From a virus (Duplodnaviria; Caudoviricetes): a stretch of DNA of 51,601 bases. Positions 217 through 48,434 of the stretch are shown here, piece by piece. The stretch lies in IMG/VR virus record IMGVR_UViG_3300032265_000046, positions 1-51,601 of that record. The stretch is one strand, 5' to 3'. Each line of letters starts with the position of its first letter. Positions within the stretch are counted from its first letter, which is position 1. A program made the translations under genes and the position numbers. The notes beneath the pieces were generated by a model, which worked only from the letters and a program-made list of their open reading frames with translations, did no database searches and was not told the origin of the DNA.

Positions 217-334
217 GTTCTTCAACGTCGTTTATCTCTTCGTCCAACTGTACGTCAGCACCGCCATCAGCGTTGTTTTTAATCCCGTTTATGAATCTAT
301 CAAACTCTGGATCATTGGGCATTTCAGTTGCCAT
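1..334 (-). CDS. Portal protein, N-terminal part (continues across the junction into 51385..49209)
   Basis: ATG at 334 with AAGGA SD 6 nt upstream; MATEMPNDPEF...AIVRLGEDKGP joins in frame to the 788-aa ORF, giving 836 aa. Confidence 0.85.
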   Translation of the reverse strand, partial: MATEMPNDPEFDRFINGIKNNADGGADVQLDEEINDVEELEDGSAIVRLGEDKGPEEDAEFYENLAEEAVNLYDLDKVGMRYIDLIEKDKEARKNRDKQYEEGLKRTGLGN

Positions 335-3300
335 ACATATTCCTTAAAAAATTATTTGAGTCTTCATAACTTAAAACTTGTCCACCCTTGGCGTAAAAAC
401 TATGCGGAATGATGTTCTCACCATCCGTTACGTCAGGCGTTGTGTCGCTCATATTGACCACACCTCCGCCAGCCATCTTGCGATGGTGATTGTTTAGGGC
501 ATCTAGCCATGACATTTGTTCCACAGAGCCTCCGTCTTTATGACCTTCTTTTTGAAGGTTGGTTAAATAGTCTTCGCTTACAAATTGCTTGGGCGTTGTT
601 GCCGTCAAGTCTTTGTGACCCATCGGTTGGGGATTGCCTGCCTTGTTCTTACGATTTGCATATTTAGCCACAAAGTCAGGCGCGGCAAACTCAACAGGGG
701 CTGGCTCAAACAACAAGCCAAGGTCAGTGCCAGTCACTTGATGTGGGAATGCCGCATTGAGATCAGGGCGATAGATGCCCGTGTCGCTATCAATAGTGAA
801 CAGGCGATTGCCTACAGCGTATGTAGGCGAGTTGGCTAACAATGGGTCAGTCTCTTCTCTAATAATCTTGAACGCTTCTTGCGTTGCCTTTTCGCCCCGC
901 TTCTCTCCGCCCATCGTCATAGCCTGCGCTAACACTTTGCGTTGGTCAAATGTCTTAGCCTTATCCAATACGGTTGGGTCGCTGACATCAATGCCTTCAG
1001 GAAATATTAATTTGCCAGACTTTGGGTGAACAGCACCGTTGACCTGCGCATTCATTTTGTCAATTAAGTCAGCAGAAGGGTTAGCCGCTCTATGCGCCTC
1101 ATACATACGCTCAACAGTCACTGGGTTACTCATGTGCTGAGTTGGTGAACCAACAAAGGTTGACCAAACAGTGTCTGGAGTATTGGCATTTATTAGGCGA
1201 GTGGCGTGGCTAGGTTTACCTACGCCCCAAGTCGTACCCGCTTTCTGGTGTGGTTTGCTAGTTAACTGCAAGCCAGAGAAACCTGTCCCACCTTTGTTGG
1301 GGCCGAACACTCGGGATCGATCAGCCTGCGTTAGGTTGAGAGTCATGCCTTCAGCGCCAGCATTACCCAAAGCCTCAGACATACGCATAATGTCTTTAGG
1401 ATTCATTGGATCAGCAAAGTCAACGCTTGGTACACCCAACCCGCGAGCGCGAAGTGCGGCTTCCTCTGCCTTGCTGAGTTTGGTTCCAGCCTTGCCTAGT
1501 TTGGCTAACGCGCTGAGTCCGCCAACCTGCATATGGATAGCGCCACCTTCTGCCATGCCTTCTGGTGGTGGCGGAAATCCATATTGCTCATGCATAAATT
1601 TAGGGTCTGCCTTGGACCTAGTTAAATTTAAGTAGTCGTATATAAGTTTTTCGTGTTCTGCGTCGGTTAAATATTCTGGAACATTCATGCCAGCATCGGC
1701 AAAACTTGCACGTTCAGGAACACTTTCAATATGTTTTAAACCAGTGTTTTGCAAATCACCAACTTCTGTATATTTACCGCTCTTTACAAAGTCTTGGATG
1801 TAAGGCAAATACTCTTTGTTTGGAGCGGCGTTCTGTTTACCTTTGATTTGAGTAATATATTGGGGCATATTGCCAATTTTTTCTTTATAAATGTCATCAA
1901 TGTGTTTATATAAATCGTTTGATGCCTGTGCTCTTTGTTCGCTGTTTGCGTTTTGAACCCACTCTTTTTGATTTTCTGGAGTGATGCCCATTCTTCGCTT
2001 TGCCTCAACCATTGCTTCACTGTAGTCAAGCCCAGCCTTTTTAAAATTTTGTGGCGTTGCTAAATTAGTTTGATTGACTTCTATCGTTGCGTGCGACATT
2101 CCTTTTGGATCACGCAAAGAATAAATCTTAGCGGCTCCAGACTTGATTGCTTCATATCCACCATGACCGTAGTCGTTATAACCAGAGTTGCCAGAGATGT
2201 CTGTCCAATCAGGGTGACCTTGTGGGGGTTCGTATCCACGAACAGAATGACCCATGATGTCAGACTCCAGCGCAAACTGCCCCGGCTGGTCTAACTGCAC
2301 CCACTTGTATCCTTCAGGATATTCTTTGTGAACCTTAGCGCTTGTCTGCTCTGCAACTCTAGCATTGAGCATCTTTTGCTTGAGTTCCTCGTCATACTGA
2401 TGAGTGCGACGTACCGCGTCTTCCATACTCACCTTATTGAGTTGCTCAGGGCGGATGCGACCTGCGGCTACGTCTTCACGCAACACATCCATGATGTGGT
2501 CAAAACCCATCTTGCTAAAGTCAGCATCTGTATTCAGGGAATAGATGTTTGTCTCTGGGTCTAATTTATTTACCCACGGCATATCTGCTGTGTTTCCAAC
2601 TGGTCTCTGCATACTTGGTAAAGCCTGTATGCGTTGATAGTGTTTAGCCGCAATTGGGCTGATTGCTTGGTCAGCCAAAAACTCATAATGCTTTGCCAAA
2701 GGGTTTTGGGCTACGCCCTTAACAGGCGAACCAAATTCTTCTCGTCTTCCTTTGACATCAAAGTTGGGAAATGTATGCAACTCCAAGTCACCATATTCAT
2801 CCACGTTTTTAGGGAAAGCGGTGATGCCCTCCTCAGCCAACTTGCGCACTGGGTCAGCCTCAGTACCCATTTGCTTAGTGATGTAGTTGCTAAGGTTCGA
2901 TTTAACCCATTTGTTGGTGGCTTCGTTACCAATTGCATTTTGCAAATCTCTGGTAAATCCTGCTACTTGGGGCGCGTCTCCTCTTGCAACTGCATCCTCA
3001 AGCATTTCCTTGATGTATTGACTATTAGGATTGTGTTTACCCTTTTGAAGATTTTCTAACTCGCGGTCAAGTTGTGTTCTGTACACGATGCGGTCAGTAG
3101 ATGGCAACCAATTGCCATCAGTCGGTTTGACAATGTGCATTACTGGTGGGTTGGCAAGGGATGCAGGCACGCCGGGGATTAGGGACTGACCCGTTGCAAT
3201 CCTATGTCCAGCAGTCTCTGCCAACTCTTTACCTAAAGTTTTAGCACCTTTATAAGCAGAGCCAAGCGCATGAAAGCCCGAGCCGGGGCCAGTGTAGAAC

Positions 3301-4412
3301 GAGCCACCCAACTGTCCCAACCCAGTAGCCGCACGACTCACTGGCGTATCCGACTTAAATGGCAGGCGCTTCTCAATCTCTTCGCTGGTCGGCAGGATAG
3401 TCTTCTCATCTAGATACGGCAACATACGAATGAGGGACTCTAGGTCACCCAACTGTCCTAGCGCTCCAGCCACAAACCCTCTTGCCGCATCGACAGGCAC
3501 ATTCTTTGAAGCCTCGCGGTCTTGGTGCGCACGCCTTGGCTTCATCTGTGGCATCACGCCAAACGCCGCTCCACCATCTGCAAATCTTGAGAGTCCGCCT
3601 TGGATTGAACCGCCGTCGGCATATATGTCTGGCAAATCAACTCGCGGACGTTTGATATCTTCTTGCCTGAGATTATCAAAATAGACTTGTGGTCTGACTT
3701 TGTTATTGGTCATCTCAAGTTCTTGTTTGAGAGCCTCTATATATTCTTCTTGCGTACGTCTAGGTAAGGGTTCACGCAACTCACGCCTTGGCAACAATTG
3801 CACAAGATTGCTTTGCTCTCCCATATTCGCTATGGCGCGGTTTCTATGCCGACCTTCATGCCCAGTGATAAACGGAACCAGTGGCAATCCCTGTTCTTCC
3901 TTATTGATAAGCAAATATGGAACGTCAGCAAATCCGCCTTTTACATTTGATAGGCTATCAATGTACTCAGACAACGTCATGTCTTTCATTGAGTCATCAA
4001 GGAACTGGCTTCCATATCCGCGATGCGCCTGCGGACTACTCATGTAGTCTGGAATAGGCGTTGCATACTTTTCAAAGTCTTGCGGTTTTATTGTCATCAT
4101 TGCGGCGGCATTGTCTCCAGTAAACGCATCCGCTAACGCATCGTGGGTGTACATCCTCTCAAGGTTCGGTATCTCATCAGCCGCACGCTCGACACGCCTT
4201 GCGCCGTAGTTGCCCTTTATGTTGCGCACCGCTTCTCTGACGTTGTTCAGTTTACCGGGGACAACAATGCCCGGGGCTGGCAAATTGATACGCGCAGTTG
4301 GCATCATGTCAATGCGCATTTGCTTTTCCGCTTGCGATGCCAGCGCTTTTTGCCAAGACGACTCGTTTGAGAGACTGGTCAATCCTTTAGCAAGTTTGGA
4401 GTAGTTAGGCAT
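324..4412 (-). CDS. Large multi-module (polyvalent-type) protein with ParB/Srx-like and PcfJ-like segments
   Basis: 1362 aa; TGHEGRHR resembles the ParB/Srx G-x-H-R motif; ESDIMGHSVRGY...IYSLRD..G.SHATIE...QIKGKQNAAP resembles PcfJ-like domains; modules are bounded by xAxGG motifs. Confidence 0.6.
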   Translation of the reverse strand: MPNYSKLAKGLTSLSNESSWQKALASQAEKQMRIDMMPTARINLPAPGIVVPGKLNNVREAVRNIKGNYGARRVERAADEIPNLERMYTHDALADAFTGDNAAAMMTIKPQDFEKYATPIPDYMSSPQAHRGYGSQFLDDSMKDMTLSEYIDSLSNVKGGFADVPYLLINKEEQGLPLVPFITGHEGRHRNRAIANMGEQSNLVQLLPRRELREPLPRRTQEEYIEALKQELEMTNNKVRPQVYFDNLRQEDIKRPRVDLPDIYADGGSIQGGLSRFADGGAAFGVMPQMKPRRAHQDREASKNVPVDAARGFVAGALGQLGDLESLIRMLPYLDEKTILPTSEEIEKRLPFKSDTPVSRAATGLGQLGGSFYTGPGSGFHALGSAYKGAKTLGKELAETAGHRIATGQSLIPGVPASLANPPVMHIVKPTDGNWLPSTDRIVYRTQLDRELENLQKGKHNPNSQYIKEMLEDAVARGDAPQVAGFTRDLQNAIGNEATNKWVKSNLSNYITKQMGTEADPVRKLAEEGITAFPKNVDEYGDLELHTFPNFDVKGRREEFGSPVKGVAQNPLAKHYEFLADQAISPIAAKHYQRIQALPSMQRPVGNTADMPWVNKLDPETNIYSLNTDADFSKMGFDHIMDVLREDVAAGRIRPEQLNKVSMEDAVRRTHQYDEELKQKMLNARVAEQTSAKVHKEYPEGYKWVQLDQPGQFALESDIMGHSVRGYEPPQGHPDWTDISGNSGYNDYGHGGYEAIKSGAAKIYSLRDPKGMSHATIEVNQTNLATPQNFKKAGLDYSEAMVEAKRRMGITPENQKEWVQNANSEQRAQASNDLYKHIDDIYKEKIGNMPQYITQIKGKQNAAPNKEYLPYIQDFVKSGKYTEVGDLQNTGLKHIESVPERASFADAGMNVPEYLTDAEHEKLIYDYLNLTRSKADPKFMHEQYGFPPPPEGMAEGGAIHMQVGGLSALAKLGKAGTKLSKAEEAALRARGLGVPSVDFADPMNPKDIMRMSEALGNAGAEGMTLNLTQADRSRVFGPNKGGTGFSGLQLTSKPHQKAGTTWGVGKPSHATRLINANTPDTVWSTFVGSPTQHMSNPVTVERMYEAHRAANPSADLIDKMNAQVNGAVHPKSGKLIFPEGIDVSDPTVLDKAKTFDQRKVLAQAMTMGGEKRGEKATQEAFKIIREETDPLLANSPTYAVGNRLFTIDSDTGIYRPDLNAAFPHQVTGTDLGLLFEPAPVEFAAPDFVAKYANRKNKAGNPQPMGHKDLTATTPKQFVSEDYLTNLQKEGHKDGGSVEQMSWLDALNNHHRKMAGGGVVNMSDTTPDVTDGENIIPHSFYAKGGQVLSYEDSNNFLRNMYGN

Positions 4413-4414: not shown

Positions 4415-5833
4415 TTACACCGCATATGGGTTGACCCGCGCAGGTTGGGCATCGAAGTAATCGTCGTCGTCGTCATCATACCGAGGTTCAGGGTCAATGT
4501 CGAGCCAGCCCATGTCTTTTAACCAACGCATCGCCTGAGTCGCTGAGTCCACATAGTCATCATGCTGTGAGTCAGGGAAGGCGCATATCTGGGACAGGAA
4601 CCCTTCAGCCCAATCCTTCACATAGCCCTTATGCACCTCGGACTCTGGGAGCCAGACACGCTTGGCAACAAAGATAGCCGCAGTAATCTGTAGGCGTTGC
4701 ATCTTGTCAGCCCGACCGGGGTTATATCCCCGCACCATCAAGTGCGCCTTCTGCAACTCTTGAATCAGAGACAGACCCGCCGCCTTCTCCTCCACCAGTA
4801 TCAGGTCAGGGCGCTTGGCATCTCTGCCTTCACCGTAAGACACTCGCCACTCGTCCTGCGCCCGCTCCTTGAGTTTAGGGAAGGTGAGGTGTTCTGCCCA
4901 GCAGTCAATCAGGAGCACGGACATCGGGCCGTCCTGTGGCTTGAACACTCCCCACGTTGTCATCGCCGTCGGGTCGTTGTAAGACTTGTCGGTGTAGGCG
5001 CAGTCATAGGACTGGATGATGTACTCGAACTTAGGGAAGGGCTTACCAGCAGGCCACATCTTGAACATATCCCTGCTCACCACCTTGCCGTCTTCGAGGT
5101 CTACCACCTCGCCGAGCACCTCCTGCTGATACAACTTCGTACCCTTGTACTGCTCAAGTTGCTTGCTGAAGGTAGCCGCTAAGTTGGCTTTGTTCTCGTA
5201 GGTGCTGGCGCGATCAATGATTACGTCGTCACCCTCACGGCTTATCAGGTCAAGGATTAAATCCTTTGGGCGCGGTGTCGTGGTCACAATCACACGAGGT
5301 TGGTCGCCCAGACGCAAACCCATCATCATCATGTCCCACGCCTCACCAGCGCCGAGGTATTGGAATGCCGCCAACTCGTCCGCCCAGCACCAATGGAACT
5401 GCGGGCCGCGTAGTCGCTCATAGGAGTCAGCGCTAATGCCACGAATGCTCGATCCATTGGACAACGTAATCTCGTGGTCTTGTTTGTTGTACTTAGCCAC
5501 CAATTCAGGAGGGATGTTAGCGAGCAGTCCTGACTTGCCCTCGAAGCAGGTGAACTTGATGTCGTTAGATGTTGGAGCCAACACCAGCCCACGGGAGCCG
5601 GGGTGCGTCCAACACCACCACCAAAGCGCATGGCTACCAGCATGGGACTTGCCCGCGCCCCTGCCTGCAATCAAAGCCCACACCGTCCAATCCAACTCCA
5701 ACGGCGGAGGTATCTGGTACTTGTGGGCGCTCGCCACCCACTCAAGGTGAGCGATTAACGCAATGCGGTCGTGCTCTGGCTTGGCGTTGAACTCCGCCTG
5801 AACTTCTGGGTCTTCGAGTAGTTCTGTTAACAC
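4415..5833 (-). CDS. terL: Terminase large subunit
   Basis: Walker A AGRGAGKS, Walker B WCWADE, VTTTP motif III, RNase H-like nuclease (SYDCA...HDDYVDS). Confidence 0.95.
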   Translation of the reverse strand: MLTELLEDPEVQAEFNAKPEHDRIALIAHLEWVASAHKYQIPPPLELDWTVWALIAGRGAGKSHAGSHALWWWCWTHPGSRGLVLAPTSNDIKFTCFEGKSGLLANIPPELVAKYNKQDHEITLSNGSSIRGISADSYERLRGPQFHWCWADELAAFQYLGAGEAWDMMMMGLRLGDQPRVIVTTTPRPKDLILDLISREGDDVIIDRASTYENKANLAATFSKQLEQYKGTKLYQQEVLGEVVDLEDGKVVSRDMFKMWPAGKPFPKFEYIIQSYDCAYTDKSYNDPTAMTTWGVFKPQDGPMSVLLIDCWAEHLTFPKLKERAQDEWRVSYGEGRDAKRPDLILVEEKAAGLSLIQELQKAHLMVRGYNPGRADKMQRLQITAAIFVAKRVWLPESEVHKGYVKDWAEGFLSQICAFPDSQHDDYVDSATQAMRWLKDMGWLDIDPEPRYDDDDDDYFDAQPARVNPYAV

Positions 5834-5909: not shown

Positions 5910-6494
5910 TTAGCCAGCACGTTTAGTCATCTCGATGTTTTTAACGATCTCTGTAAACCTGTCTATGCTTTTGTTTTCAGTGGCGATAGGCGCTCCACCC
6001 ACTACGCCCTCAACAGCAAAGCGGTCGCCGTACTTGCGTGGCTTGAGTTTCGCCGCCGTCCACTTGCGTGCCTCTATGCGACTCCTCTGCCAGTTGATGT
6101 AGGTTGCGTCCAGCGTAGTGCGACCGTCTTTGTCGGTGTACTCAGGAGGGTGCTCATCAGCGATCTGGAGGATTTCGTCAGCGTTAGTGTCAGCCTGATC
6201 CTCTCGTGCGCGTGCGTACATATCGCAGAAGATTGGGAAGCGAGCCAACCAACGATAGATTGTTGCGACGTGCGGTAGGTGGTCGTCCTTGCACATTTGC
6301 ACTAATGGCTCACCGTGAGTGAGTCTCCAGCATATCTCGTCTGCTATAGCGTCTGTGAACTCTACTGGTCTACCAATGGGGACTTGTTTTGCGGGGTCTG
6401 GAGCCTTTGCGGGCGCGGTAGCACCCTTTGCCTGTGTCTTAGGCTTTAATGGCTTAACGGGGCGTTTTGTCCCCTTCTTGGCGGTTTCTGGCAT
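5910..6494 (-). CDS. terS: Terminase small subunit
   Basis: GRP.EFT..IADEIC..L..GE.L...C....P...TIYRWL HTH and ARKW.AAKL.PRKYGD; directly upstream of terL; start moved to ATG 6494 (AAGGGA SD). Confidence 0.85.
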   Translation of the reverse strand: MPETAKKGTKRPVKPLKPKTQAKGATAPAKAPDPAKQVPIGRPVEFTDAIADEICWRLTHGEPLVQMCKDDHLPHVATIYRWLARFPIFCDMYARAREDQADTNADEILQIADEHPPEYTDKDGRTTLDATYINWQRSRIEARKWTAAKLKPRKYGDRFAVEGVVGGAPIATENKSIDRFTEIVKNIEMTKRAG

Positions 6495-6529
6495 GACCCG
6501 TATTCCCTTCGGTTTGATTGATTGTCGCC

Positions 6530-6559
6530 AGTGTATCAAACCTTTATGGTTTTCGCCAA
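6530..6559 (-). promoter_or_regulatory. Putative sigma70-type promoter for terS/late genes
   Basis: TTGGCG-18 bp-TACACT with extended -10 TG; the same TGATACACT occurs at 14299-14307. Confidence 0.4.
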
Positions 6560-7777: not shown

Positions 7778-7896
7778 ATTCACTTTCCTTCACTGTTACT
7801 GACTATGCGGTATTGCTGTGTCAGTGATACTAGTATAACACCAACTTAAACGATGTCAACAACTTTATCAATTTATTTTCTAGGTACTTTCCCTAG
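7778..7896 (-). promoter_or_regulatory. Promoter-leader cassette copy 1
   Basis: TAGGGAAAGTACCTAG box; TTGACA (7854-59)-16 bp-TATACT (7832-37); ACTGAC/GTCAGT hairpin; ACAGTGAAGGAAAGTGAATATG. Confidence 0.85.
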
Positions 7897-7900
7897 TATT

Positions 7901-8542: not shown

Positions 8543-8648
8543 ATTCACTGTTCCTTCACTGTTTACAACTGCACTATTGCTGTTGTTGGTTTAAGTATAT
8601 CTTAAACGAACAGCCTGTCAACAATTATTTTCTAGGTAGTTTCCCTAA
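8543..8648 (-). promoter_or_regulatory. Promoter-leader cassette copy 2
   Basis: TAGGGAAACTACCTAG box; TTGACA (8616-21)-16 bp-TATACT (8594-99); GTTTAAG-N5-CTTAAAC palindrome; ACAGTGAAGGAACAGTGAATATG. Confidence 0.85.
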
Positions 8649-9114
8649 GTGCCAAAAGTTTTTCAATCAACTTGTCTTCGCGCCATTCATTAGCCCACTT
8701 ACGATGTTTTTCAGCCTCTTCCTTTTGCTTACGTTGCTCTATTGGGCATCGGTCAATGAAGGGATACAGTCGATCACTACGAGATGGGTGTCTTAATTTA
8801 CGGAGCGCTCTAGCCTCAATCTGGCGTACTCGCTCTTTGGACACTCGAAAGAAGACCCCAACATCGTGAAGGGTGCGGTCGTCCCAAAATCGAAACCAAA
8901 GGCAAGCCTTTTCTTTATCGGTCAGTTGTTCCAAAGTTTTTGGAATCAAGCGTTCTAAATCAATTTTGTTGTCAATGTCATCGGACTCTAAAGCCATCCA
9001 CGGTGGAAGGCGCTTAAACACCTCCTGCTCTGGCTCTTCATGGCGACTACGCCAGAGTTTGCCTACCTCTGGGTGAAAGTCTGCCAGCCGGCCTTCAGGG
9101 GTTATCCTGCGCAT
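8632..9114 (-). CDS. Stand-alone sigma70 region 4-like HTH protein
   Basis: RTLHDVGVFFRVSKERVRQIEARALRKLRHPSRSDRL closely matches RpoD region 4.2; no region 2 present. Confidence 0.85.
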   Translation of the reverse strand: MRRITPEGRLADFHPEVGKLWRSRHEEPEQEVFKRLPPWMALESDDIDNKIDLERLIPKTLEQLTDKEKACLWFRFWDDRTLHDVGVFFRVSKERVRQIEARALRKLRHPSRSDRLYPFIDRCPIEQRKQKEEAEKHRKWANEWREDKLIEKLLALRETT

Positions 9115-9880: not shown

Positions 9881-9999
9881 TTCACTGTTTCCTTCACTGT
9901 ATCGACTGTGCGTTATTGCTGTGTCGATGTGTGTAGTTTAAGCCAGTCTTAAACGATGTCAACAACTATTTGCAAATATTTTCTAGGTGGTTTCCCTAA
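9881..9999 (-). promoter_or_regulatory. Promoter-leader cassette copy 3
   Basis: TAGGGAAACCACCTAG box; TTGACA (9957-62)-16 bp-TAAACT (9935-40); GTTTAAG-N5-CTTAAAC; ATCGAC/GTCGAT hairpin; ACAGTGAAGGAAACAGTGAAATG. Confidence 0.85.
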
Positions 10000-10285
10000 T
10001 ACCGCCCTCAAGTAATCCTAAAGTGTCACTTAGCAAGTCTTCCTCGGTGTAGCCCCAGTGTTTAGGGAATCCTTTCGTGCCAAGCCCGTGAACGCCCGTA
10101 GAGCCTCTGTGGTGCTCTGGGCATAGCGGTATGACACTCATGTGGCTAGAACGCCCCCAACCCCCCGCCAATCGCCTTGGATGGTGCAACTCGGCGGGCG
10201 TACCTGCATACCCCATCCGTCGGCAAACTGCACAACCCAGTTCGGCAACAGCATCCATGTGCTTGCGCTCTGCTTTTGTAGTCAT
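9983..10285 (-). CDS. Ref-like (RecA-dependent recombination enhancement) HNH nuclease
   Basis: VAELGCAVC...AELHH.R...SH..VIPLCPEHHRG..GVH pattern of the P1 Ref family. Confidence 0.8.
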   Translation of the reverse strand: MTTKAERKHMDAVAELGCAVCRRMGYAGTPAELHHPRRLAGGWGRSSHMSVIPLCPEHHRGSTGVHGLGTKGFPKHWGYTEEDLLSDTLGLLEGGIRETT

Positions 10286-19946: not shown

Positions 19947-19949
19947 TTT

Positions 19950-20942
19950 TTACCCCACTAAATAGCCGTGATCATCATAGAAATTACCCTGACCATCGTG
20001 GTAAGAAGCGCCCATAGGTACTCCTCCATCTGCCATCATTACAGCACCGCCGTCCGCCTTTGCTACTACTGGTTTCGTTACATCCATACCTTGTTTGATG
20101 GCATTGGATATATCAGAATTACCAGACAACGACGCGAGTATTGTTCCCAAAGAACCGATTTGAGTCAGTGGGCTGAGTCCGAATTGTCCTTGGGTGCCGG
20201 GAGCCACCGTCTGCTGTAATGAACCCATAGGCACCGTACCCGCTGGCAACAGTTTTGCATAGTTCTGCGCTTGCAACATTGGGTAATCAAGCGCCGCTTG
20301 CCCTAACTTCTGCTGGTTTGCACCAAAGTTAAATAGAGTGTTTAAACCACCAGTACCAAGTTGATTTTGTGCTTGACCTAGTTGACCCAAACCCTGACCT
20401 GCCGTTATTTGACGACCTAAATCAGTTTGAGCGGCTTTTGTAGCCGTGTCATACCCTGTGCTAAGTGCTTGATATTGCTTGCCTAACAAATCGCTTTGGA
20501 TGTCGCGTAGCGTGTTTCCTGTAATCTGTTGCTGGCGCTGTGAACCAAACTGTCCTGAACCAGCCGCTACACCACCAAGTGCAGGCAAAACATTCTCTTG
20601 CACATTACGGTTAACCAAACGACCCATCTCGTCCACAACATTGGACTGGTACGGGTTCATGTAGCCTTGGACTATCTCAGGAGTTGCTGTACCGCCTGCG
20701 CCTGTCAACATTTGGCTGGCTTGACCCAATGATCCAGAGCCAGCAAACGCCATGTCTGGAGCCATTTGGAAGGCTTGCTGTTGGAGCGGGCTAAACCCTG
20801 CGACACCGCCCTGTTGGACAGCGCTCTGCCCTAAGTTTGCAATATCTTGGAGGTAATTGTTGTAGTAATCGGGGGCGGTATCCTGCTTCTGAACCGTTGT
20901 GGTTACATCTGGCAGTGCCGCGCCTTGGAATAGATCAGCCAT
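19950..20942 (-). CDS. Putative ejection (pilot-type) protein
   Basis: YMNPYQ..VV, GQFGSQR Gln/Gly-rich pattern; C-terminal KADGG/MADGG. Confidence 0.6.
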   Translation of the reverse strand: MADLFQGAALPDVTTTVQKQDTAPDYYNNYLQDIANLGQSAVQQGGVAGFSPLQQQAFQMAPDMAFAGSGSLGQASQMLTGAGGTATPEIVQGYMNPYQSNVVDEMGRLVNRNVQENVLPALGGVAAGSGQFGSQRQQQITGNTLRDIQSDLLGKQYQALSTGYDTATKAAQTDLGRQITAGQGLGQLGQAQNQLGTGGLNTLFNFGANQQKLGQAALDYPMLQAQNYAKLLPAGTVPMGSLQQTVAPGTQGQFGLSPLTQIGSLGTILASLSGNSDISNAIKQGMDVTKPVVAKADGGAVMMADGGVPMGASYHDGQGNFYDDHGYLVG

Positions 20943-23448
20943 TCATAGACTCCTTGATATAGTTCAAAGGTGATTTAGCCTTTGGGGGTATTTTACCGAG
21001 AGGTGCGCTTCTTTTGTGCGCCCGTACTTCTTCGCGGAACTTATCTAGCACCTTTGCGCCAGCCTTATTAGAACCGTTACCTAACATGGAAACCAATTCG
21101 GCATCCATAACGTATTCTCCATCAGCCAGCCATGCAGGAATGTCGTCCGATTGACCATCGCCGGCACCGTTAACAGCGGAGCCTTGACGGAAATCCACGC
21201 GCTTGTCTACCACTGGATTGGTGTGGTGGCTATGTTGGGTGTGAGCCTGCGAGAGTCCACCCTTTTTCATGCCATGCGCCAAGCCAAGTGTCTCGGCTGG
21301 ATCAATAGCGCGACCAAACGTGTAATGCGTTGCGCCACCCGTAGCCATTGCTGGCTCTTGCGTTGTATCTGAATTACCAGACTGATCCACTGGATTACCT
21401 TGGTCGTCGGTGTACTGAGTCATTTCAGGCTCGTTCAAATAACCAGAAATGCCAAGGTCTGAATACAAGCGCTGGTCTGGGGTGTATTGGTAATCAGAAC
21501 TTTGGTCGTAGTCTTGGTATGGAACAACAGTGCTACCAGTGCCTGTGCGACCGCCTGTCATACCTGCACCAAAATCTGTAGTTCTTGGAGTTATTGCTGT
21601 TAATTCCGAAATATCTACTGGCTGTCTCGTACCGCTTGAATCACCGCTTGAACCCATCAACGAAGTTAGCAATGCGCCAATTGCACCGCCAGCAAGCGCT
21701 GGGTTTTGGCTCACATATGATTTAAGCGCATCTACTATGCTGGTATCTTCTGGTTTTGCATCTGTAGGAACAACTGCATTTTGTTTAGCAAAACTTGGTT
21801 TTGCAACGTCACCTACAGAAGTAATTGCTCCAACAGCAGGTTTTGTATTGCTTGGCAAACCAGTATTGGTAACTGGCGTACCCGTAAAGTTTATGGGTTG
21901 ATTGGTCTGCATATCATAGGTTTGATTTCCTACTGAATATGTTCCATCCCCATTGTCAGTCACAACATCTACACCGCCATTTGGATTATCTCTATACAAA
22001 GGCATATCCGTTTGCATATCAAAGGTCGTGCCATTGAGGGTATAAGTTCCATCGTTGTTGTCTACAGCGCCTTCTGGCATATAGGAAGTATCTGCACTTG
22101 TATTAGATGCTGATGCAATACTGCTCAAAGATGTTGGGGCATTGGATTTTGCATATCCTTGGTTACCAAGCACAGGGACGTAAGAGTCACCAGACTCGTT
22201 TGTTCCTAAAGGCTTATACAAGTCTCCAGTTTCAGGATTAATCGCATAGTCTGTGATAGCCCCAGTTTCATCAACAAGGTTTCCGTCAGCGAATCTAGGC
22301 AATCCGCCTTTTTGTTTTTGATGCATAGAGCCACCATTTTTTGCAAAAGAGTCATAACTAAAATCGTATCCTGATCCGCCACCAGAATCTACTGGCGTAT
22401 CGTTACCCGCTAGTGTGTAGTCGCCACCACCAAGTGAGTAATCTCCACCCCCAAGCGTGTAATCGCCACCTAATGTGTAATCACCACCAACAGTAGTGTC
22501 ACCAGCAACAACAGTGTCACCGCCAGTAACCGTGGTGTCTCCGCCAGTAACAGTTGTATTGCCACCAGTAACGGCAGTGTCTGCGCCTGTAACAGTATTA
22601 CCACCATCAACAGCCTCCATACCAGCCGTAGTTCCATCAGCGTTGTAAGTGGTTTTAATGCCATCCTCAATTACGGTATATGTTCCATCTGCATTTTTAA
22701 TTGCACCTTCTGGTGGAGTAAAAGACTCTTCAGATGCCTTAACTCGGTCAAGTTCCGCTTGAATTTCTTCGTCAGTTAAAACTTTACTGGTGATAGGCAC
22801 ATTTGTTTTTCCACCAGCACCAGTAGTTCCGCCAGCAGGTGACTTTGCGCCACCAGAAGTTCCACCACCAGCGGGTTGCTTAGTGCCACCACCTAGAATA
22901 TTTCCAATAAGCGCACCCGCGCCAGCACCTGCAATCGTTTTGACAATTGGATTATTAAGAACACTGGTTATGCCAGAGGTATTAGTTTTTGGAATAGTTA
23001 TTGGCGTTTTTGTGGTTGGCGTAGTTATGGGTTTTACTGGAGTCTTTGTTGTGGTTGCTATAGGAGTAACAGGCTTTTTAGGCGTTGTAATAATTGGCTT
23101 AACGGGTTGCTTAACAGTAACTGGCGTTTTGCTGACTGGTTGTACAACTTTGCTAGGCAAATTGGATATTGGGGTTTTAGGCTGAACTACAGAAGTAAGT
23201 GGAGTTTTTCCAACAGGTGACCCAACAGAAGAAATTGGCGCAACAGGTTTATTTGAATTTGTTGCTAAGTTTTGATTACTGATTGAAGTAACAGGTCTAT
23301 TTGGGTTTGCCGCAATGCTTTGGTTGATTGGAGCAACGCCTGTTCTTGTTTGAGACCTGCCAAAGTTGCGAGGCGCATTACGCATCACCGAACTTATAGT
23401 TCGTACTGGTGTTCTGGTCTCTAAAGGGTTAATGATTGTTTTAGCCAT
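20935..23448 (-). CDS. Large low-complexity virion-region protein with globular-looking C-terminal domain
   Basis: Pro/Thr/Lys-rich N-terminus, GGDTTV/GGDYTL repeats, C-terminal GAGDGQSDDIPAWLADGEYV. Confidence 0.65.
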   Translation of the reverse strand: MAKTIINPLETRTPVRTISSVMRNAPRNFGRSQTRTGVAPINQSIAANPNRPVTSISNQNLATNSNKPVAPISSVGSPVGKTPLTSVVQPKTPISNLPSKVVQPVSKTPVTVKQPVKPIITTPKKPVTPIATTTKTPVKPITTPTTKTPITIPKTNTSGITSVLNNPIVKTIAGAGAGALIGNILGGGTKQPAGGGTSGGAKSPAGGTTGAGGKTNVPITSKVLTDEEIQAELDRVKASEESFTPPEGAIKNADGTYTVIEDGIKTTYNADGTTAGMEAVDGGNTVTGADTAVTGGNTTVTGGDTTVTGGDTVVAGDTTVGGDYTLGGDYTLGGGDYSLGGGDYTLAGNDTPVDSGGGSGYDFSYDSFAKNGGSMHQKQKGGLPRFADGNLVDETGAITDYAINPETGDLYKPLGTNESGDSYVPVLGNQGYAKSNAPTSLSSIASASNTSADTSYMPEGAVDNNDGTYTLNGTTFDMQTDMPLYRDNPNGGVDVVTDNGDGTYSVGNQTYDMQTNQPINFTGTPVTNTGLPSNTKPAVGAITSVGDVAKPSFAKQNAVVPTDAKPEDTSIVDALKSYVSQNPALAGGAIGALLTSLMGSSGDSSGTRQPVDISELTAITPRTTDFGAGMTGGRTGTGSTVVPYQDYDQSSDYQYTPDQRLYSDLGISGYLNEPEMTQYTDDQGNPVDQSGNSDTTQEPAMATGGATHYTFGRAIDPAETLGLAHGMKKGGLSQAHTQHSHHTNPVVDKRVDFRQGSAVNGAGDGQSDDIPAWLADGEYVMDAELVSMLGNGSNKAGAKVLDKFREEVRAHKRSAPLGKIPPKAKSPLNYIKESMNG
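22405..22605 (-). repeat. Degenerate in-frame tandem repeats (GGxTTVT and GGDYTL units)
   Basis: About 6 GG(N/D)TxVT-like units and 4 GGDY(T/S)L units in the translation. Confidence 0.8.
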
Positions 23449-23451
23449 TGT

Positions 23452-34359: not shown

Positions 34360-35631
34360 TTAATATCCTTCGGTGTAATAAAGAACAACAGCGCCATCGC
34401 CACCACTTCCACTACGACAATAAGTACTAGCGCTACTATCTGCGCAATTTCCGCCGCCGCCACCACCTCCGTTGCCACCATTGCCACCATAGCCAACATA
34501 ACTAGCGGAAGTGGTACGCCCACCACCACCTCCGCCACCAAAACCACCATTACCGCCAAATGCTGTACTAGAAGATGCGCTATAAGCACCGCCACCACCC
34601 CCGCCAAATCCACCGCTACCCCCATATGCAGTTGCTGATGAATAACCATAACAGCCACCACCACCACCACCATTACCACCATTACCGCCAGAGCCCGGTT
34701 GGTAGTATGTGTTCATACAACCACCCCCTCCGCCATCAAGATTACCCCAGTATGCTAAAAAGGCACTTCCGCTTGTTGAGCCAACACTACTTGTAGATTG
34801 GAATGCGTAATTTGTAGTGCTATAAATAAGAACATAGCCAGCAGTACCACCGTTTGATCCACCACCATTCTTTGAACCTTGACCTGTAGCCCCTCCGCCA
34901 CCACTACCATAAGAGTTAAATGTATTTTGCGCGGCACTTTGTAATCCGCCACCACCAGAGCCATAACCGTTTCCGCCATTTCCCCCAAATCCACCACCAC
35001 CAAGACCAGCATATGTACCTGTTGTACTACTAGTTACAAACCCATTACCACCTGTTCCATAAATTGAACCTGCACCACCTCCACCGCTTCCTCCTGTGTA
35101 TGAATAACTAGTACTGTGATAACCACCAACGCCACCAGTGGCTGTGTAGTATTGACGTAATGAAGTAGAAGCAGTACCCGAACCACCAGTTCCTGCGGAT
35201 GTAGTATTGTTAACACCACCAGTGCCACCTGTAGCACTTAATAATGTTCCGTAAGAAGATGTGCCTCCAGCATTACCTGAAGCATTTCCAATAACTGACG
35301 CACCGCCAGCACCAACAGTTATTGTGGATAAAATTTGCCCCGGTACTACGTCAATAATTCCTTGAGCGTAGCCTCCACCAGAACCACCCAAAGCGTAATT
35401 ACTATTGTAAGTAGACCCAGATGATCCAGAACCACCTGCACCCCAAACGCAAACCATAATTTGATATACGTTTTGTGGAACAACAAAAGGACTAGTAAAC
35501 GTACCAGCAGTTAAAAACGCACGATAGTTTACCCATTTAGGAGGTGCTAAACGAGTCGCAGTATTAGGTGGCAATGGTGTGCCATATGTGCCTTTATTTA
35601 GGGCTGATCTGTTTTCATTACCGAATGACAT
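34360..35631 (-). CDS. Glycine-rich tail fibre-like protein
   Basis: F.VP..V..I.V..WGAGG start and repeated GGxGGxGGGGGG (polyglycine-II type). Confidence 0.7.
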   Translation of the reverse strand: MSFGNENRSALNKGTYGTPLPPNTATRLAPPKWVNYRAFLTAGTFTSPFVVPQNVYQIMVCVWGAGGSGSSGSTYNSNYALGGSGGGYAQGIIDVVPGQILSTITVGAGGASVIGNASGNAGGTSSYGTLLSATGGTGGVNNTTSAGTGGSGTASTSLRQYYTATGGVGGYHSTSYSYTGGSGGGGAGSIYGTGGNGFVTSSTTGTYAGLGGGGFGGNGGNGYGSGGGGLQSAAQNTFNSYGSGGGGATGQGSKNGGGSNGGTAGYVLIYSTTNYAFQSTSSVGSTSGSAFLAYWGNLDGGGGGCMNTYYQPGSGGNGGNGGGGGGCYGYSSATAYGGSGGFGGGGGGAYSASSSTAFGGNGGFGGGGGGGRTTSASYVGYGGNGGNGGGGGGGNCADSSASTYCRSGSGGDGAVVLYYTEGY

Positions 35632-41946: not shown

Positions 41947-42201
41947 TTACCAACCGGGGCAGTCCCACCGCTTCAGCGATGCCTTAGCGCGTGGTGCGTC
42001 CCCCTTTGCGTGTTCTACAACGCCGCTCATGCGTGCGCAAAATGAATCTTTTCGAGCGCCACCTTTTGGCTGTGGAGCCTTTAAATGACTCCCAGTTTCA
42101 CGGTTGTATTTTGCCCTACCTTTGGCTGTTAATCCAGCACCTTTTTCAACAGACAACTTTTCACCGCGACCAACTGCAAGACTTACATTCTTCTTGCTCA
42201 T
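41947..42201 (-). CDS. Small basic virion-region protein
   Basis: GLTAKGRAKYNRETGS.LKAP...RKDSFCARM...SLKRW.C. Confidence 0.75.
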   Translation of the reverse strand: MSKKNVSLAVGRGEKLSVEKGAGLTAKGRAKYNRETGSHLKAPQPKGGARKDSFCARMSGVVEHAKGDAPRAKASLKRWDCPGW

Positions 42202-42476
42202 TTTACTTTGGCTGTTTTGGCTGACTCTCGGAAGGCTTCAGCCGTTGGCGCACCTTTGCTACCAACTCGACGCATTTTTTCGCCAGAGCCTTCAGAAATT
42301 CTTTCACGTTTTGCATTAATGTTGTCATACAAGCCGCCTCCTTTAAATTTTTTACCTTTGTCAGCCTCATTAAATTCTTTGCCAACCTTTTGAGGTATAC
42401 CAACTTTTTTAGCAAACGCAGGGTTATGTGCGACCGCCGCCATTAAATTGTGTTGGGCAGGTGATTTGCTTGGCAT
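42198..42476 (-). CDS. Small basic two-module protein
   Basis: MPSKS.AQHNLMAAVAHNP.FAKKVGIPQ, then FKGGG, then GLYDNINAKR.RI..GSGEKMR. Confidence 0.75.
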   Translation of the reverse strand: MPSKSPAQHNLMAAVAHNPAFAKKVGIPQKVGKEFNEADKGKKFKGGGLYDNINAKRERISEGSGEKMRRVGSKGAPTAEAFRESAKTAKVK

Positions 42477-42942: not shown

Positions 42943-44307
42943 TCAACAAGCGCGTCCGCCGCGTTTCTTTCCTGCTGGCGTAACAGTTACAGACTTTTCA
43001 GTCTGCGTTACAGCACCCGGTGCTTTGTTCGCACGATCTGCCCTTATCTTGTCAGCCATGTATCTACGAGACTCGCCCTCAAACAACTTCTTGCGCTCAT
43101 CGCCCTTGAAGTAACCCTCTGGGTCAAAAGAACGCATAACGTGTTGTCCAAGACTCTTGAGCGGGTCAAGAATCATGTTGCGCATTGACTCGTTTTCTGC
43201 CCTTTCATTGGCATAGTGAGCGTCATACGCGCCATTAGACATATCTTCCATAGGCTGTCCGCCAGATGCCATACGCTTTGGTGAACCATATTTCAGGTTG
43301 CTATCCTTTTTGGCATCTCGCATAGACATAGCATTTTCTGAGGCGTTGTATTTCAACAAACGTGCTTCCGCAGGAGTTGCTCGCCCACCCTTTTTGTAAG
43401 TACCAGCCAGTTGGCTAATCTTTACAGATGAGGGAACGGGCTTATTGCCTTGCGGCATTGCGACGGCGCGACCTGAATCAACAGTTCCCCCCGTCGCGTA
43501 GGCTTTTTTTGAGGTTTTGCCCCCCATTTTGAAACCACCAGCATTACCGTTACGCACACCGCCTGTTACGGCTCTTGAGCGATCTGGTTTTGCCTGATGC
43601 ATCAGCGTAGTGTCATATGAGCCACTTGTAGTCTCTGAAGGAATAGAGCCTCCAGTTGCATAACCGCCAGCATTGGACTTAGCCACGCCACCAGTTGCAT
43701 ACTTAGTTTTTCCACCCTTTTTGAAGCCACCAGCATTCCCGTTCTTTACATCGCCAGTCTTGGCTTTGGAATGATCGGGTTTTGCTTGATGCATCTTGGT
43801 TGTTGGGTAGTTATCCCAACTTTCCTCAGAAGGAATTGAACCGCCAGTAGCGAACTTTTTCATTCCGCCCTTTTTCAGTTTTAATTCCGTTCCTTTGCCA
43901 CCTTTATGCTCTTGCATATCGTGTTGCTTGAACGCCTTCTTGATCATGGCCTTGTCTTGCGCCATATCAGATTTACCGCCCTCCATCATCATCTTGCCGC
44001 CTTTTCTCATCATAGGCATAGCCATTGGGGGGCCTGACGGCGTGACAGCAGGCTTTGCCATCATCGCTTTACGACGCATAGCCATTGAGGGCTTCATAGG
44101 GGTGCGCACAGGAGCGTTAACAGCAGGACGACCCAACAAAGCAGGTGTTCCAGCCATCATGTCCATAGCGCCACCACCCATAGCCATCTTCTTGGCTTTA
44201 GTGGTGCTACCGCCTTTTTTCATTTTGACTGCACCACCTTTTTTGAGTTTTAACTCAACGGTTGGTTCTGTGGTCTCCATCTTGACCATTGGTTTAAATT
44301 GACCCAT
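42943..44307 (-). CDS. Basic K/G/M-rich internal-protein candidate with 14 or more GG motifs
   Basis: 454 aa; repeated LKKGG/MKKGG/FATGG/YATGG; internal ~50-aa duplication; AAGGAG SD. Confidence 0.8.
   Translation of the reverse strand: MGQFKPMVKMETTEPTVELKLKKGGAVKMKKGGSTTKAKKMAMGGGAMDMMAGTPALLGRPAVNAPVRTPMKPSMAMRRKAMMAKPAVTPSGPPMAMPMMRKGGKMMMEGGKSDMAQDKAMIKKAFKQHDMQEHKGGKGTELKLKKGGMKKFATGGSIPSEESWDNYPTTKMHQAKPDHSKAKTGDVKNGNAGGFKKGGKTKYATGGVAKSNAGGYATGGSIPSETTSGSYDTTLMHQAKPDRSRAVTGGVRNGNAGGFKMGGKTSKKAYATGGTVDSGRAVAMPQGNKPVPSSVKISQLAGTYKKGGRATPAEARLLKYNASENAMSMRDAKKDSNLKYGSPKRMASGGQPMEDMSNGAYDAHYANERAENESMRNMILDPLKSLGQHVMRSFDPEGYFKGDERKKLFEGESRRYMADKIRADRANKAPGAVTQTEKSVTVTPAGKKRGGRAC
43460..43525 (-). 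promoter_or_regulatory. Candidate -1 programmed ribosomal frameshift signal
   Basis: G6 run, 9 nt, in-frame A AAA AAA (43510-43504), 5-6 nt, then GC stem (43491-97/43460-66 or 43493-98/43467-72). Confidence 0.5.
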
Positions 44308-45355: not shown

Positions 45356-45364
45356 TGGCGGTTT

Positions 45365-46279
45365 TTACACGCCGGGTGTGCCGTAAACGGCGCGTGGATC
45401 AGTAAAGCCCACTTGATAACGCTCAGTAGCCTTGTAGCGCATAGAGTCGGTCTCAAAATCACCTTCCATAGTTTTTTCGAGTTTGCGACGCATTAGCAAC
45501 TTCATGCCTTCTGGTGCATCAGTCTGTACCCAGAACGCTGTAGCGCTGGTTAAACGTGACAACACTGCCGCGCCTTCGTCCAATAGACCGATAGACTTAA
45601 CAGGGTTGATGTCGTTGTTACCAGTACCAGAGCGGAGAACAGACTTCAACAACACTTCGGCTTGGAAGACGTTGCTCGGAGCCACAATCAATTGACGTGG
45701 AACCAAACGAATCTTCTTACCGTTGTTGTCTACTGCTTGGCGAATCTGAATCAACATCTGCTCAAGCGATGTTTGGCTCAGGTTTGCGGCTGTGGTCAAC
45801 AAGTTGCTGAAAGTACCATTCACGATTGGGTGAGCGTTGGAGTTCAATTGAACGCCATCACCACCGGGGTACGCACTGTTAAACGCGCGGTTCAACACGT
45901 TTGCCGCCAAAGTCTCTTTGGTCTCAATCAAAGACTGAGCCAAGTGACGAGCGTAAACCTGACCGATACGGATATGGTCGCCATCTTCAACCAAAACTTT
46001 GGTCAACGCGAAGGCCAAGCCATACACGTTATACACATAGCGTTGCAAGAAGAGTACGCCACCTTGCTGATAGGACACTGGTGTTCCGTCAGGCAATTGA
46101 GGCGCGGCTCCAAATCCATAAAGGACTGGTTCTTCGTGGTAGTTACGGGGAATACCTTCTTGCTCACGGAAAACCCGTGACCATTCATCGGTACGTTGGT
46201 CATAGACTCCATCGAAGCATTCATTGAGGATAGGTTCAACGATGCTTCTAAAGTCCGTACTTCGCATTGGTGCGGCCAT
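45365..46279 (-). CDS. Major capsid protein (Mu gpT-like family, HK97 fold inferred)
   Basis: 304 aa; GFGAAP...G....Y, TKET.AANVLNRAF...GGDG..L...HP, GDFET.SMRYKATERY..GFTDPR..YG; strong SD and own terminator. Confidence 0.85.
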   Translation of the reverse strand: MAAPMRSTDFRSIVEPILNECFDGVYDQRTDEWSRVFREQEGIPRNYHEEPVLYGFGAAPQLPDGTPVSYQQGGVLFLQRYVYNVYGLAFALTKVLVEDGDHIRIGQVYARHLAQSLIETKETLAANVLNRAFNSAYPGGDGVQLNSNAHPIVNGTFSNLLTTAANLSQTSLEQMLIQIRQAVDNNGKKIRLVPRQLIVAPSNVFQAEVLLKSVLRSGTGNNDINPVKSIGLLDEGAAVLSRLTSATAFWVQTDAPEGMKLLMRRKLEKTMEGDFETDSMRYKATERYQVGFTDPRAVYGTPGV

Positions 46280-46291
46280 TATTTATTCTCC

Positions 46292-46864: not shown

Positions 46865-46893
46865 AGTCTTACTCCTTGTTTGTTAAAACATTC

Positions 46894-47439
46894 CTACCCA
46901 GCGAAATGCGGAGCAGGTATCGGCTTATCAATGTTGTCCAAACCTTCGCCTTCTGTCTGACCCAGAGGTCTCCCTCGGCTATCACGTCCCACTTGTTGCT
47001 CTGCTTGTAAGCGAATCTTGTTCGCCTCTTCAAGCGGTGCTTCATGGTGAAAATGAGACATAACTTCTTGATACATATCCATAGGGATTTTGTACAAGAG
47101 CATCTCATTACACGCGATATAACCAGTTTGTTCGCCAGCCTTGACTCGGTAGTTATCAAAACCTTGCATCTCATCCGCTTTCACGGGTTGATAGCCAAGC
47201 CTGATTCTCTTGTCAATGCTGTCATACGCATTGGTTGTCGATAACCAGCAAAGATGCCATCCCTTCATTTCAGGGACATTGGGCAACGCGCTTTGTGTCC
47301 ACTCATCTTTCCACATCTTGCGACGTTCATCAGACGATACGAACTGATCTTCAGGTGCCTCTCGACTTTTATCAAGACTCGCGCGAGTTTCGCGTCCACC
47401 AGCAGACAAATTTTTCTTTAAACGAGAATCCATTTTCAA
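46894..47439 (-). CDS. Head-module hypothetical protein
   Basis: SALP..P...GWH.CW........R.GY.PVKA.E; between scaffold and capsid genes. Confidence 0.7.
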   Translation of the reverse strand: MKMDSRLKKNLSAGGRETRASLDKSREAPEDQFVSSDERRKMWKDEWTQSALPNVPEMKGWHLCWLSTTNAYDSIDKRIRLGYQPVKADEMQGFDNYRVKAGEQTGYIACNEMLLYKIPMDMYQEVMSHFHHEAPLEEANKIRLQAEQQVGRDSRGRPLGQTEGEGLDNIDKPIPAPHFAG

Positions 47440-48434
47440 CTCCTATTACCGTTGTTTTGACGTGCTTCTTTAGCATAACGAGCGACCATTCGCGCTCTCT
47501 TCTCGGGATCGTCCCACATACCCGCATCTTTCATAGCCCTAACCTGATCTGGGTTTAGGGTAAAGGTATTTCTACCACCACTACTCGACACTGCTTCGCG
47601 TCCCGAACTCGTCACAACATTACGGGGTCTCCGTTGAGTTGGTTTCTCATTCGCGTTATCAGTATAACGGTGTGGTAGGTACTTTTGCAAGCGATTGTCA
47701 AGTTCTTCCCAAAATTCTGCTGTTTGGGGTGAATAACCATCTTCTGCAAGAGCCGCGTCTATGGTTAAAGCAATCTTGGAATCAGAATCTTTGCCTCTAG
47801 GGTCATACCAAGAATTGTTTGACATCCATTGGTTAGCAAAATTCTGCACCGCAGGATCAGGCGCTTGAATTGTGGGTTGTGGGCGTTGTGAAGTGGCTTT
47901 TTTCTTGATATTCTCAAGAGCCTCTGCATTTCTACGCGCATCAAACCACATTTCCTGAGCATTCGTAGCCAAAGCACCGTTTCCAGTGGCAGTAGCCTCT
48001 TCCATTTTGGATTTAGCAAACTGAATCTTGGAATACTCGTTCTCAATTGCCTTATTTATTCGGGCAACCTCAGAACCGTGCGTCTTTTTCTCCAAAACTG
48101 CCATGCGCTCAAGCAATTCTTGGTTTTGGCGCTCCAAATGATTGATTTTTACGCTTTTCTCTTGCTCGACATTGCGGTGATACTCTTTGCGGGAGCGTCT
48201 TTTTTGACGTTTTGCCTCACGCATCGCTTCTGCATCAGCATCTACCTCACCACCAGATGCCATTTCTGCACGTCTGGCTCGATCATCAGCCTCGTCAGAG
48301 TCTTCGTGCTCTGAGTCTGCTTGTACGTCAGGGGATGGAATACTTTCTGGCAATTCAATCGTTGCGGAACCGTCCACCTCCTCTTGAATTGTGATTACTT
48401 CTGGCTTTTCAGCCGTAATTTGTTCGGTACTCAT
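47436..48434 (-). CDS. Putative scaffolding protein
   Basis: Acidic N-terminus, long coiled coil, W...N.WY, position in the head module. Confidence 0.65.
   Translation of the reverse strand: MSTEQITAEKPEVITIQEEVDGSATIELPESIPSPDVQADSEHEDSDEADDRARRAEMASGGEVDADAEAMREAKRQKRRSRKEYHRNVEQEKSVKINHLERQNQELLERMAVLEKKTHGSEVARINKAIENEYSKIQFAKSKMEEATATGNGALATNAQEMWFDARRNAEALENIKKKATSQRPQPTIQAPDPAVQNFANQWMSNNSWYDPRGKDSDSKIALTIDAALAEDGYSPQTAEFWEELDNRLQKYLPHRYTDNANEKPTQRRPRNVVTSSGREAVSSSGGRNTFTLNPDQVRAMKDAGMWDDPEKRARMVARYAKEARQNNGNRS

Follow-up and report, generated by a model that had tools for sequence, protein, structure and literature searches.

The window considered here is the whole of IMG/VR virus record IMGVR_UViG_3300032265_000046, a stretch of 51,601 bases from a virus of the Caudoviricetes (Duplodnaviria) that CheckV rates as 100% complete. 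Within it, a short motif ending in two glycines recurs in otherwise dissimilar proteins encoded in the virion region. In its strict form the motif reads [FYML]-[AKR]-x-G-G (looser variants were tallied separately), and it is a junction-specific short linear motif in the flexible linkers of probable particle cargo. Its clusters are referred to below as seams.

The late genes are, with few exceptions, on the minus strand. Their order starts with the small terminase (5910-6539), the large terminase TerL (4415-5833), the gene of a 1362-aa protein (324-4412) and the portal gene, followed by genes for a GroES-like 140-aa protein, a 332-aa scaffold-like protein, proteins of 181 and 190 aa and the capsid (45365-46279). 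After the capsid come a 321-aa protein, a basic 454-aa protein (42943-44307) and small proteins of 143, 92 and 84 aa; the remaining late genes are those for the adaptor, tail and lysis, and then an ejection-type block (16570-26097). The two termini of the record (1-216 and 51386-51601) form a 216-base repeat with 95% identity, so that the genome is in effect circular. The features that bear on the motif are the following:

324..4412, minus strand: 1362-aa polyvalent-type pre-portal protein, with modules at about aa 1-263, 282-952 and 966-1290 and a C-terminal tail.
3570..3623, minus strand: seam 1 of the 1362-aa protein, YADGG (3609-3623) and FADGG (3570-3584); alignment ends cluster at aa 260-290.
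1518..1556, minus strand: seam 2 of the 1362-aa protein, MAEGG (1542-1556) and the variant MQVGG (1518-1532), 8 residues apart; alignment ends at aa 950-1000.
381..542, minus strand: seam 3 and tail of the 1362-aa protein, the variant HKDGG (528-542), MAGGG (462-476) and YAKGG (381-395); alignment ends at aa 1290-1320.
19950..20942, minus strand: 330-aa ejection-type protein (phrog_4287), with KADGG (20046-20060) and MADGG (20022-20036) near its C-terminus.
20935..23448, minus strand: 837-aa ejection-type protein, with MATGG (21334-21348) and MKKGG (21256-21270) just upstream of a conserved C-terminal tape-measure-type module (20938-21210).
41947..42201, minus strand: 84-aa protein, a stand-alone mini-module C (DUF6321, PF19846) without the motif.
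42198..42476, minus strand: 92-aa protein, mini-module A, FKGGG (42333-42347) and mini-module B, the two modules matching two different PHROG families (residues 1-44 and 48-91).
42943..44307, minus strand: 454-aa basic protein (84 K+R against 39 D+E), with 13 strict copies, MMEGG and KKRGG.
47436..48434, minus strand: 332-aa scaffold-like protein, a weaker member; MASGG (48249-48263) lies in the acidic N-terminal region.

Every copy reported in the initial annotation of this DNA was recovered. The 14 copies that it had counted in the 454-aa protein are 13 strict ones and the variant MMEGG, and the portal, TerL and capsid indeed carry none in the window. A further strict copy that it did not list, YALGG in a 423-aa protein (34360-35631), fits chance (0.64 expected). 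This protein is 32% glycine, has 65 GG pairs and matches a tail-fibre-assembly PHROG; its GG contexts depart from the motif, and it is usable as a negative control.

Enrichment was judged on 40 open reading frames (ORFs), using 5000 shuffles of the whole protein and 2000 shuffles inside 20-aa blocks. For the 454-aa protein, 13 strict copies stand against 0.37 expected, a count reached in 0 of 5000 whole-protein shuffles and, with 0.47 expected, in 0 of 2000 block shuffles. The 1362-aa protein has five strict copies against 0.36 expected (p = 0.0002), again reached in 0 of 2000 block shuffles. Lower counts were found in the 837-aa protein (2 against 0.24, p = 0.024), the 92-aa protein (1 against 0.04, p = 0.038), the scaffold-like protein (1 against 0.02, p = 0.015) and the 330-aa protein (1 strict copy against 0.21, p = 0.19). 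The 40 ORFs combined hold 24 strict copies, with 4.1 expected and a shuffle maximum of 13. Enrichment over composition-matched shuffles thus holds protein by protein for the 454-aa and 1362-aa proteins, whereas the others are not convincing individually (p 0.015-0.19). As only two proteins are significant individually, the remaining members rest on conservation in relatives.

Relatives were collected with the capsid protein as query against IMG/VR, which, among the matches listed, gave relatives on 595 of 600 matched stretches (at least 595 contigs); the best 80, with 93-98% capsid identity, were kept and form the relative set together with GenBank MW202545.1. Across this set it is again the same classes of protein that carry the motif. 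Strict copies per homologue average 9.7 in the basic protein (n = 74) and 3.3 in the homologues of the 1362-aa protein (n = 22), are about one in the families of the 92-aa (n = 23) and 84-aa (n = 51) proteins, and amount to 0.38 in the scaffold-like protein (n = 69) and 0.03 in the portal (n = 66). No strict copy was counted in the homologues of the capsid (81), the 181-aa (73) and 190-aa (79) proteins, the GroES-like protein (63), the 321-aa protein (30), the adaptor (56) or a 125-aa protein (51). Large proteins in the pre-portal position that have no BLAST similarity to the 1362-aa protein of the window still contain 2-4 copies. Four more distantly related cultured phages, Caulobacter phage RLK (capsid 77% identical to that of the window), Pelagibacter phage HTVC023P, Roseobacter phage CRP-901 and Alcaligenes phage QDWS535, show no motif enrichment; they share the whole head module (portal, GroES-like, scaffold, 181-aa, 190-aa and capsid proteins), without the cargo proteins or the motif.

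An unbiased logo of all GG pairs in the relatives returned Y/M/F/L at position -3, K/A at -2 and a Val two residues after GG (4.3-4.5-fold). The basic and pre-portal proteins show this context; a control set of 936 GG pairs from other virion proteins (portal, capsid, tail and others) does not. The 818 motif copies in relatives derive from 493 different 15-mers, and their glycine codon usage is the same as that of other glycines. The codons at the motif therefore vary and conservation lies at the protein level, as had been proposed; a DNA-level cause, such as a ribosome-binding-like or slippery sequence at the motif, was considered and rejected, since the codons vary and the junction of the 92-aa and 84-aa genes (below) has no long run of A. 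The motif is a selected protein-level signal, common to otherwise unrelated virion-region proteins. No description of it was found in the literature searched.

The small proteins encoded downstream of the basic protein place the motif most clearly at module joints. In the relatives, 68 distinct small proteins are built from five mini-modules (A-E) in 11 architectures (A-C, A-B-C, C, A-E, D-C, A-B, A-D-C, B-C, A, B and D-B). GG is present in all 69 distinct module joints, 62 of them with the strict motif and 67 with the loose one, and in the alignment the following module begins directly after GG. The motif is absent from eight of the nine single-module C ORFs and from the C-terminal end of module B. 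Seven stand-alone C ORFs were aligned: five open with Met-Ser/Ala-Lys in the motif columns, their start Met standing in the column of the first motif residue, and two open one residue later. Where two modules are physically joined the motif is retained, and from most stand-alone C modules it is missing. AlphaFold modelling of a fused A-B-C protein (pLDDT 68, pTM 0.29) shows small, helical modules; the first motif (residues 44-48) lies in coil with the next helix starting from residue 49, and the second (91-95) begins a stretch of pLDDT below 50.

The 84-aa protein of the window belongs to DUF6321 (64 bits to PF19846, cut-off 28.5), a family with tblastn relatives in 515 phage records, mostly cyanophages; a 529-aa structural protein of cyanophage S-E7 with DUF6321 has one loose copy only. 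The start of the 84-aa gene overlaps the stop of the 92-aa gene in a plain ATGA overlap, with no long run of A.

The pre-portal proteins point the same way. The motif had been placed at module boundaries in the initial annotation, and in relatives the modules of the 1362-aa protein are reshuffled precisely at its motif clusters. All-against-all BLAST of 40 pre-portal proteins gave 445 internal alignment ends, of which 26.5% lie within 30 residues of a motif; random positions would give 12.3%, and the maximum of 1000 trials was 17.5%. In the 1362-aa protein itself the ends cluster at the three seams. Its three modules occur in other orders or partnerships in 15 relatives, module 3 being N-terminal in five of them and module 1 lying at residues 895-1151 in one, and clustering of the segments of 39 pre-portal proteins gives 31 groups. 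The motif marks points where modules are reshuffled between related phages.

What are these pre-portal proteins? The 1362-aa protein has no Pfam, PHROG or NCBIfam match of its own. Among 37 pre-portal proteins of the relatives, Pfam finds ART-PolyVal (8), DUF7178 (6), PcfJ (5), RadC (1) and ParB_N (1), and because the relatives carry these domains the pre-portal proteins can be assigned, by domain content, to the polyvalent proteins as defined by Iyer, Burroughs, Anand, de Souza and Aravind (2017, PMC5512222). Like the polyvalent proteins treated in that paper, they are large multi-module proteins of the virion region whose modules are swapped between relatives. The 1362-aa protein joins several unrelated, independently mobile domains in one polypeptide and is encoded with virion and packaging genes, between TerL and the portal, a position that would be consistent with delivery together with the DNA. 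Polyvalent proteins are predicted there to be processed by embedded peptidases (zincin-like, assemblin-like and others; Iyer et al., 2017), whereas no embedded peptidase domain was found in the pre-portal proteins here. No junction motif is described in PMC5512222, whose text contains neither "linker" nor "glycine"; as a further difference, the seam is also found here in a basic internal protein, in mini-module proteins and in ejection proteins.

In the family of the basic protein, length ranges from 267 to 458 residues and copy number from 5 to 14. The N-terminal 25 residues are almost invariant, and their last part is the first motif. Copies are closely spaced, with 308 of 753 motif gaps at 12 residues or fewer, and are often paired 8-13 residues apart. 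If the 454-aa protein of the window were cut at all loose copies, 16 pieces would result, 3-101 residues long and almost without exception net positive. The proteins of this family end in a basic GG followed by 1-4 residues, mostly with Cys as the last; DUF6321 modules likewise have a conserved Cys-containing terminal tail.

In the ejection-type block, which was compared across eight loci covering it, homologues of the 837-aa protein have 2-5 loose copies in all eight, with at least one copy or pair just upstream of the conserved C-terminal module. The upstream copy is kept even where the remaining protein is unrelated. Homologues of the 330-aa protein have a copy near the C-terminus in six of the eight loci and none in two, and those of the 609-aa, 515-aa and 881-aa proteins of the block have no copy at any of the eight. 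In MW202545.1 the homologue of the 330-aa protein (18832-20070) carries a long, near-pure Cys/Ser run by its C-terminus, right before a loose copy of the motif. For the scaffold-like protein, homologues show variants at the site that include MAxGG, MVxGG and IAATG, and in Caulobacter phage RLK the scaffold homology starts only past the MASGG site (residue 65).

The C-terminal module of the 837-aa protein leads to the tail tape measures of well-known phages. Residues 751-815 match three tape-measure PHROGs (phrog_6090, 25241 and 5448), and BLASTP aligns the module to residues 1019-1098 in Pseudomonas phage JBD30's tape measure protein (E = 2e-5), so that it is tape-measure-like; the match to lambda gpH is not significant (E = 0.067). 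In the JBD30 alignment a degenerate FRQGS at the start of the module of the window sits on FASGG. The module starts with a full copy in Caulobacter phage RLK (MARGG) and in MW202545.1 (YACGG), and in the 837-aa protein and the tape measures alike the motif stands at its start and a similar unit, L-A-D-G-E-Y-V, at its end.

JBD30 has FASGG and HATGG in the C-terminal region of its tape measure. In lambda gpH (853 residues), FATGG (733), YATGG (778) and MRDGG (842) all fall within the last 121 residues (0.29 expected, p = 0.003). gpH is processed to gpH* and gpHC by an enzyme and at a site that are both unknown; its residues 818-849 are bound to gpI, and about 690-817 are unresolved (PMC12617516). 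T5 pb2 is converted to pb2* and pb2C, and mass spectrometry places the cut "after R1127" (PMC10038345). In the pb2 sequence, R1127 is the first residue of R-A-E-G-G. The pentapeptide is present in tape measures that are processed, and the 837-aa protein ends in such a module; the lambda and T5 proteins are tail proteins cut once each, whereas here the motif is multiplied over the head and ejected cargo of a short-tailed phage.

Why should a motif be kept at joints and be mostly missing from modules that stand alone? In the reading preferred here, the fuller motif, hydrophobic-[Ala/Lys]-x-Gly-Gly-x-Val, is a seam signal in flexible linkers between exchangeable modules, and the proteins bearing it are most likely packed in the particle and ejected by this short-tailed phage. 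The putative cargo would consist of a polyvalent effector, whose gene stands between those of terminase and portal, a basic protein, long and disordered, whose gene follows that of the capsid, the helical mini-modules and the two ejection proteins. We tentatively infer, with a likelihood a little short of even, that the seam is a proteolytic processing site, because modules occur either fused or split, because most free C modules lack the motif, and because of the logic of polyvalent polyproteins and the T5 precedent. One gene would then give several products, namely free effector modules and, from the 454-aa protein, many short basic peptides. The cut may fall after Gly-Gly or, as in T5 pb2, between motif residues 1 and 2. 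The complete genome has no recognisable protease, and unrelated phages have the motif too, among other places in the tape measures of lambda and JBD30; any cutting would therefore be the work of a host protease or of an unrecognised virion-associated one. More boldly, the seam might be a portable "cut here" code for one conserved endoprotease, host-encoded or carried in the particle, that also cuts lambda gpH and T5 pb2, and aquatic phages might have multiplied it to send in many effectors and short basic peptides with the DNA; this extension is unlikely.

The search for a cutting enzyme or reader bears out the earlier statement that no dedicated protease gene is recognisable: with Pfam, PHROGs and NCBIfam, none of the ORFs of the complete record matches a protease family. 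Matches of the capsid to "protease" PHROGs span only the capsid part of fused proteins. A common pre-portal module hiding a protease was also considered and rejected; a single-linkage cluster of 32 of the 39 proteins proved to be a chaining artefact, and no module is shared by all. A profile of the middle module of the window matches only 11 of the 39, and an Atlas search with this module gave no usable match. A head-module protein that had been suggested as the reader was followed further:

46894..47439, minus strand: 181-aa head-module protein, tested as candidate reader; no link to the motif system shown.

This suggestion gained no support. A word-index search gave 1843 matches to the 181-aa family, all unnamed, and a full HMMER search gave 439 representative clusters at 50% identity; profile searches against the PDB, Pfam on 64 members and an Atlas search returned no match. 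The AlphaFold model has a pLDDT of 58.9, and the best Foldseek probability against the PDB is 0.13. His62, Cys64 and Cys110 were tried as catalytic residues and none is invariant; E112 and H131 are invariant in the family. The protein also has a homologue in Caulobacter phage RLK, which has no motif proteins. Co-folding of the 181-aa core with a junction-bearing segment (score 0.00, mark 0.32) is uninformative either way.

Several observations weigh against proteolytic processing. The evidence from the joints suits an uncut hinge equally well, and neither the ORFs of the complete record nor, by Pfam, the 37 pre-portal proteins of relatives contain a recognisable protease or peptidase. Cuts at close motif pairs in the basic protein would free peptides of just 7-13 residues. 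The motif belongs to a conserved unit in the tape-measure-type module and therefore may be structural there. The 14-kDa fragment of lambda implies a cut at about residues 709-720, that is 13-24 residues upstream of FATGG, and a cut right after FATGG would yield 12.2 kDa. The T5 precedent is a single site, has Arg and not a hydrophobic residue in first position, and is cut before Ala and not after GG.

It is possible, though somewhat unlikely, that the seam is instead an uncut structural joint, in which a tight Gly-Gly turn or short strand would orient modules, or pair with other copies or with the tape-measure-type module, during assembly of the internal and ejection proteins or their threading through the portal. 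The restriction of the motif to junctions and the failure to find a protease agree with this, as do the pairing of copies 8-13 residues apart and the bounding of the tape-measure-type C-terminal module by the motif and L-A-D-G-E-Y-V. GG favours two-residue hairpin turns, and the flanking hydrophobic residue and Val would suit such a hairpin. However, AlphaFold shows low-confidence coil and no hairpin, a plain hinge leaves the conserved first residue unexplained, as a structural joint does the 13-14 copies in the disordered basic protein, and T5 pb2 is cut at such a site.

Alternatively, cargo could be loaded into the prohead through binding of the copies to a head protein such as the scaffold, capsid or portal. 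The capsid-targeting sequence of T4 offers an analogy for such a docking tag, the motif is limited to proteins expected inside the particle, and the many copies in the basic protein could provide avidity. The initial annotation had left docking and cleavage side by side; cleavage fits better, given the T5 pb2 cut in R-A-E-G-G, and docking less well, since eight of nine stand-alone C modules lack the motif, as does module B at its C-terminal end. Cargo and motif are both missing from relatives that share the head module, such as Caulobacter phage RLK, and therefore no receptor co-varies with the motif. The motif is also present in the tape measures of lambda and JBD30, which belong to the tail and not to the cargo of the head. 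A docking role is quite unlikely.

A contact with packaged DNA, made by Lys and an aromatic residue or Met beside Gly-Gly in a protein acting as counter-ion or condenser, is improbable. It would suit the strongly basic, disordered-looking 454-aa protein, whose gene lies near that of the capsid, but the surroundings of the scaffold-like copy are very acidic, the variable position is Asp or Glu in copies of the 1362-aa and 330-aa proteins, and the restriction to junctions is left unexplained. That the motif has no function and is a by-product of Gly/Lys-rich low-complexity sequence and shared ancestry is hardly credible: copies outside the two main proteins are individually not significant and the relatives are close in the capsid gene (93-98% identity), but shuffles in 20-residue blocks never reach the observed counts and so contradict it, Gly-rich tail proteins lack this GG context, the motif stands at joints of non-homologous modules and in non-homologous pre-portal proteins, and its codons vary.

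Proteolytic processing at the seams would have parallels in known systems. In T4 and in phiKZ/SPN3US, one short motif with an acidic P1 residue is shared by scaffold, internal proteins and injected head enzymes and is cut by a dedicated phage protease; in T4 a conserved N-terminal targeting sequence precedes the first protease site. The invariant 25-residue N-terminus of the basic protein, which ends in the first motif, resembles the T4 arrangement. Unlike in T4 and phiKZ, no recognisable phage head maturation protease was found, the motif is based on Gly-Gly and the capsid has no copy. Gly-Gly-directed proteases (C39, adenovirus protease and ubiquitin-like deconjugases) recognise a pair of glycines preceded, at a short distance, by a hydrophobic residue, whereas here the hydrophobic residue stands three before the first Gly, with Ala/Lys adjacent. 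The present motifs differ from C39 leader peptides in being internal and repeated, and the genome has no such peptidase domain.

A few further features of the genome lie outside the motif system. The portal frame is open across the circularised ends for 908 codons, about 72 of which are doubled by the terminal repeat, so the true portal is, judging from the reading frame, about 836 aa (matching the nearest relative) and not the 788 aa listed. A GroES/Cpn10-like gene (48431-48853; Pfam 36 bits, cut-off 21) lies within the head module, and its place there is conserved in the four cultured phages named above. In the early-gene region, a 98-base direct repeat (7801-7898 and 9904-10001; 77% identity) adjoins a sigma-factor-like gene (8632-9114) and may be a repeated regulatory element. 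No solved structural relatives of the capsid, the 190-aa protein or the portal were found.

What is new here is the statistics of the joints in a freshwater clade that is abundant, the finding of no support for the 181-aa protein as reader, and the tie to the tape measures of lambda, JBD30 and T5. The link to lambda gpH and T5 pb2 makes the old question of the gpH cut testable in model phages. The motif would provide a simple rule for splitting uncharacterised phage cargo proteins into modules. Even without cutting at the seams, it is a defined, portable phage linker that tolerates free exchange of modules and is useful for protein engineering. If the seams are cut, one polyvalent gene would give several separate anti-host enzymes and one basic gene about 15 peptides, and gene counts would understate the protein repertoire of a very abundant group of freshwater phages (at least 595 IMG/VR contigs with a capsid relative).

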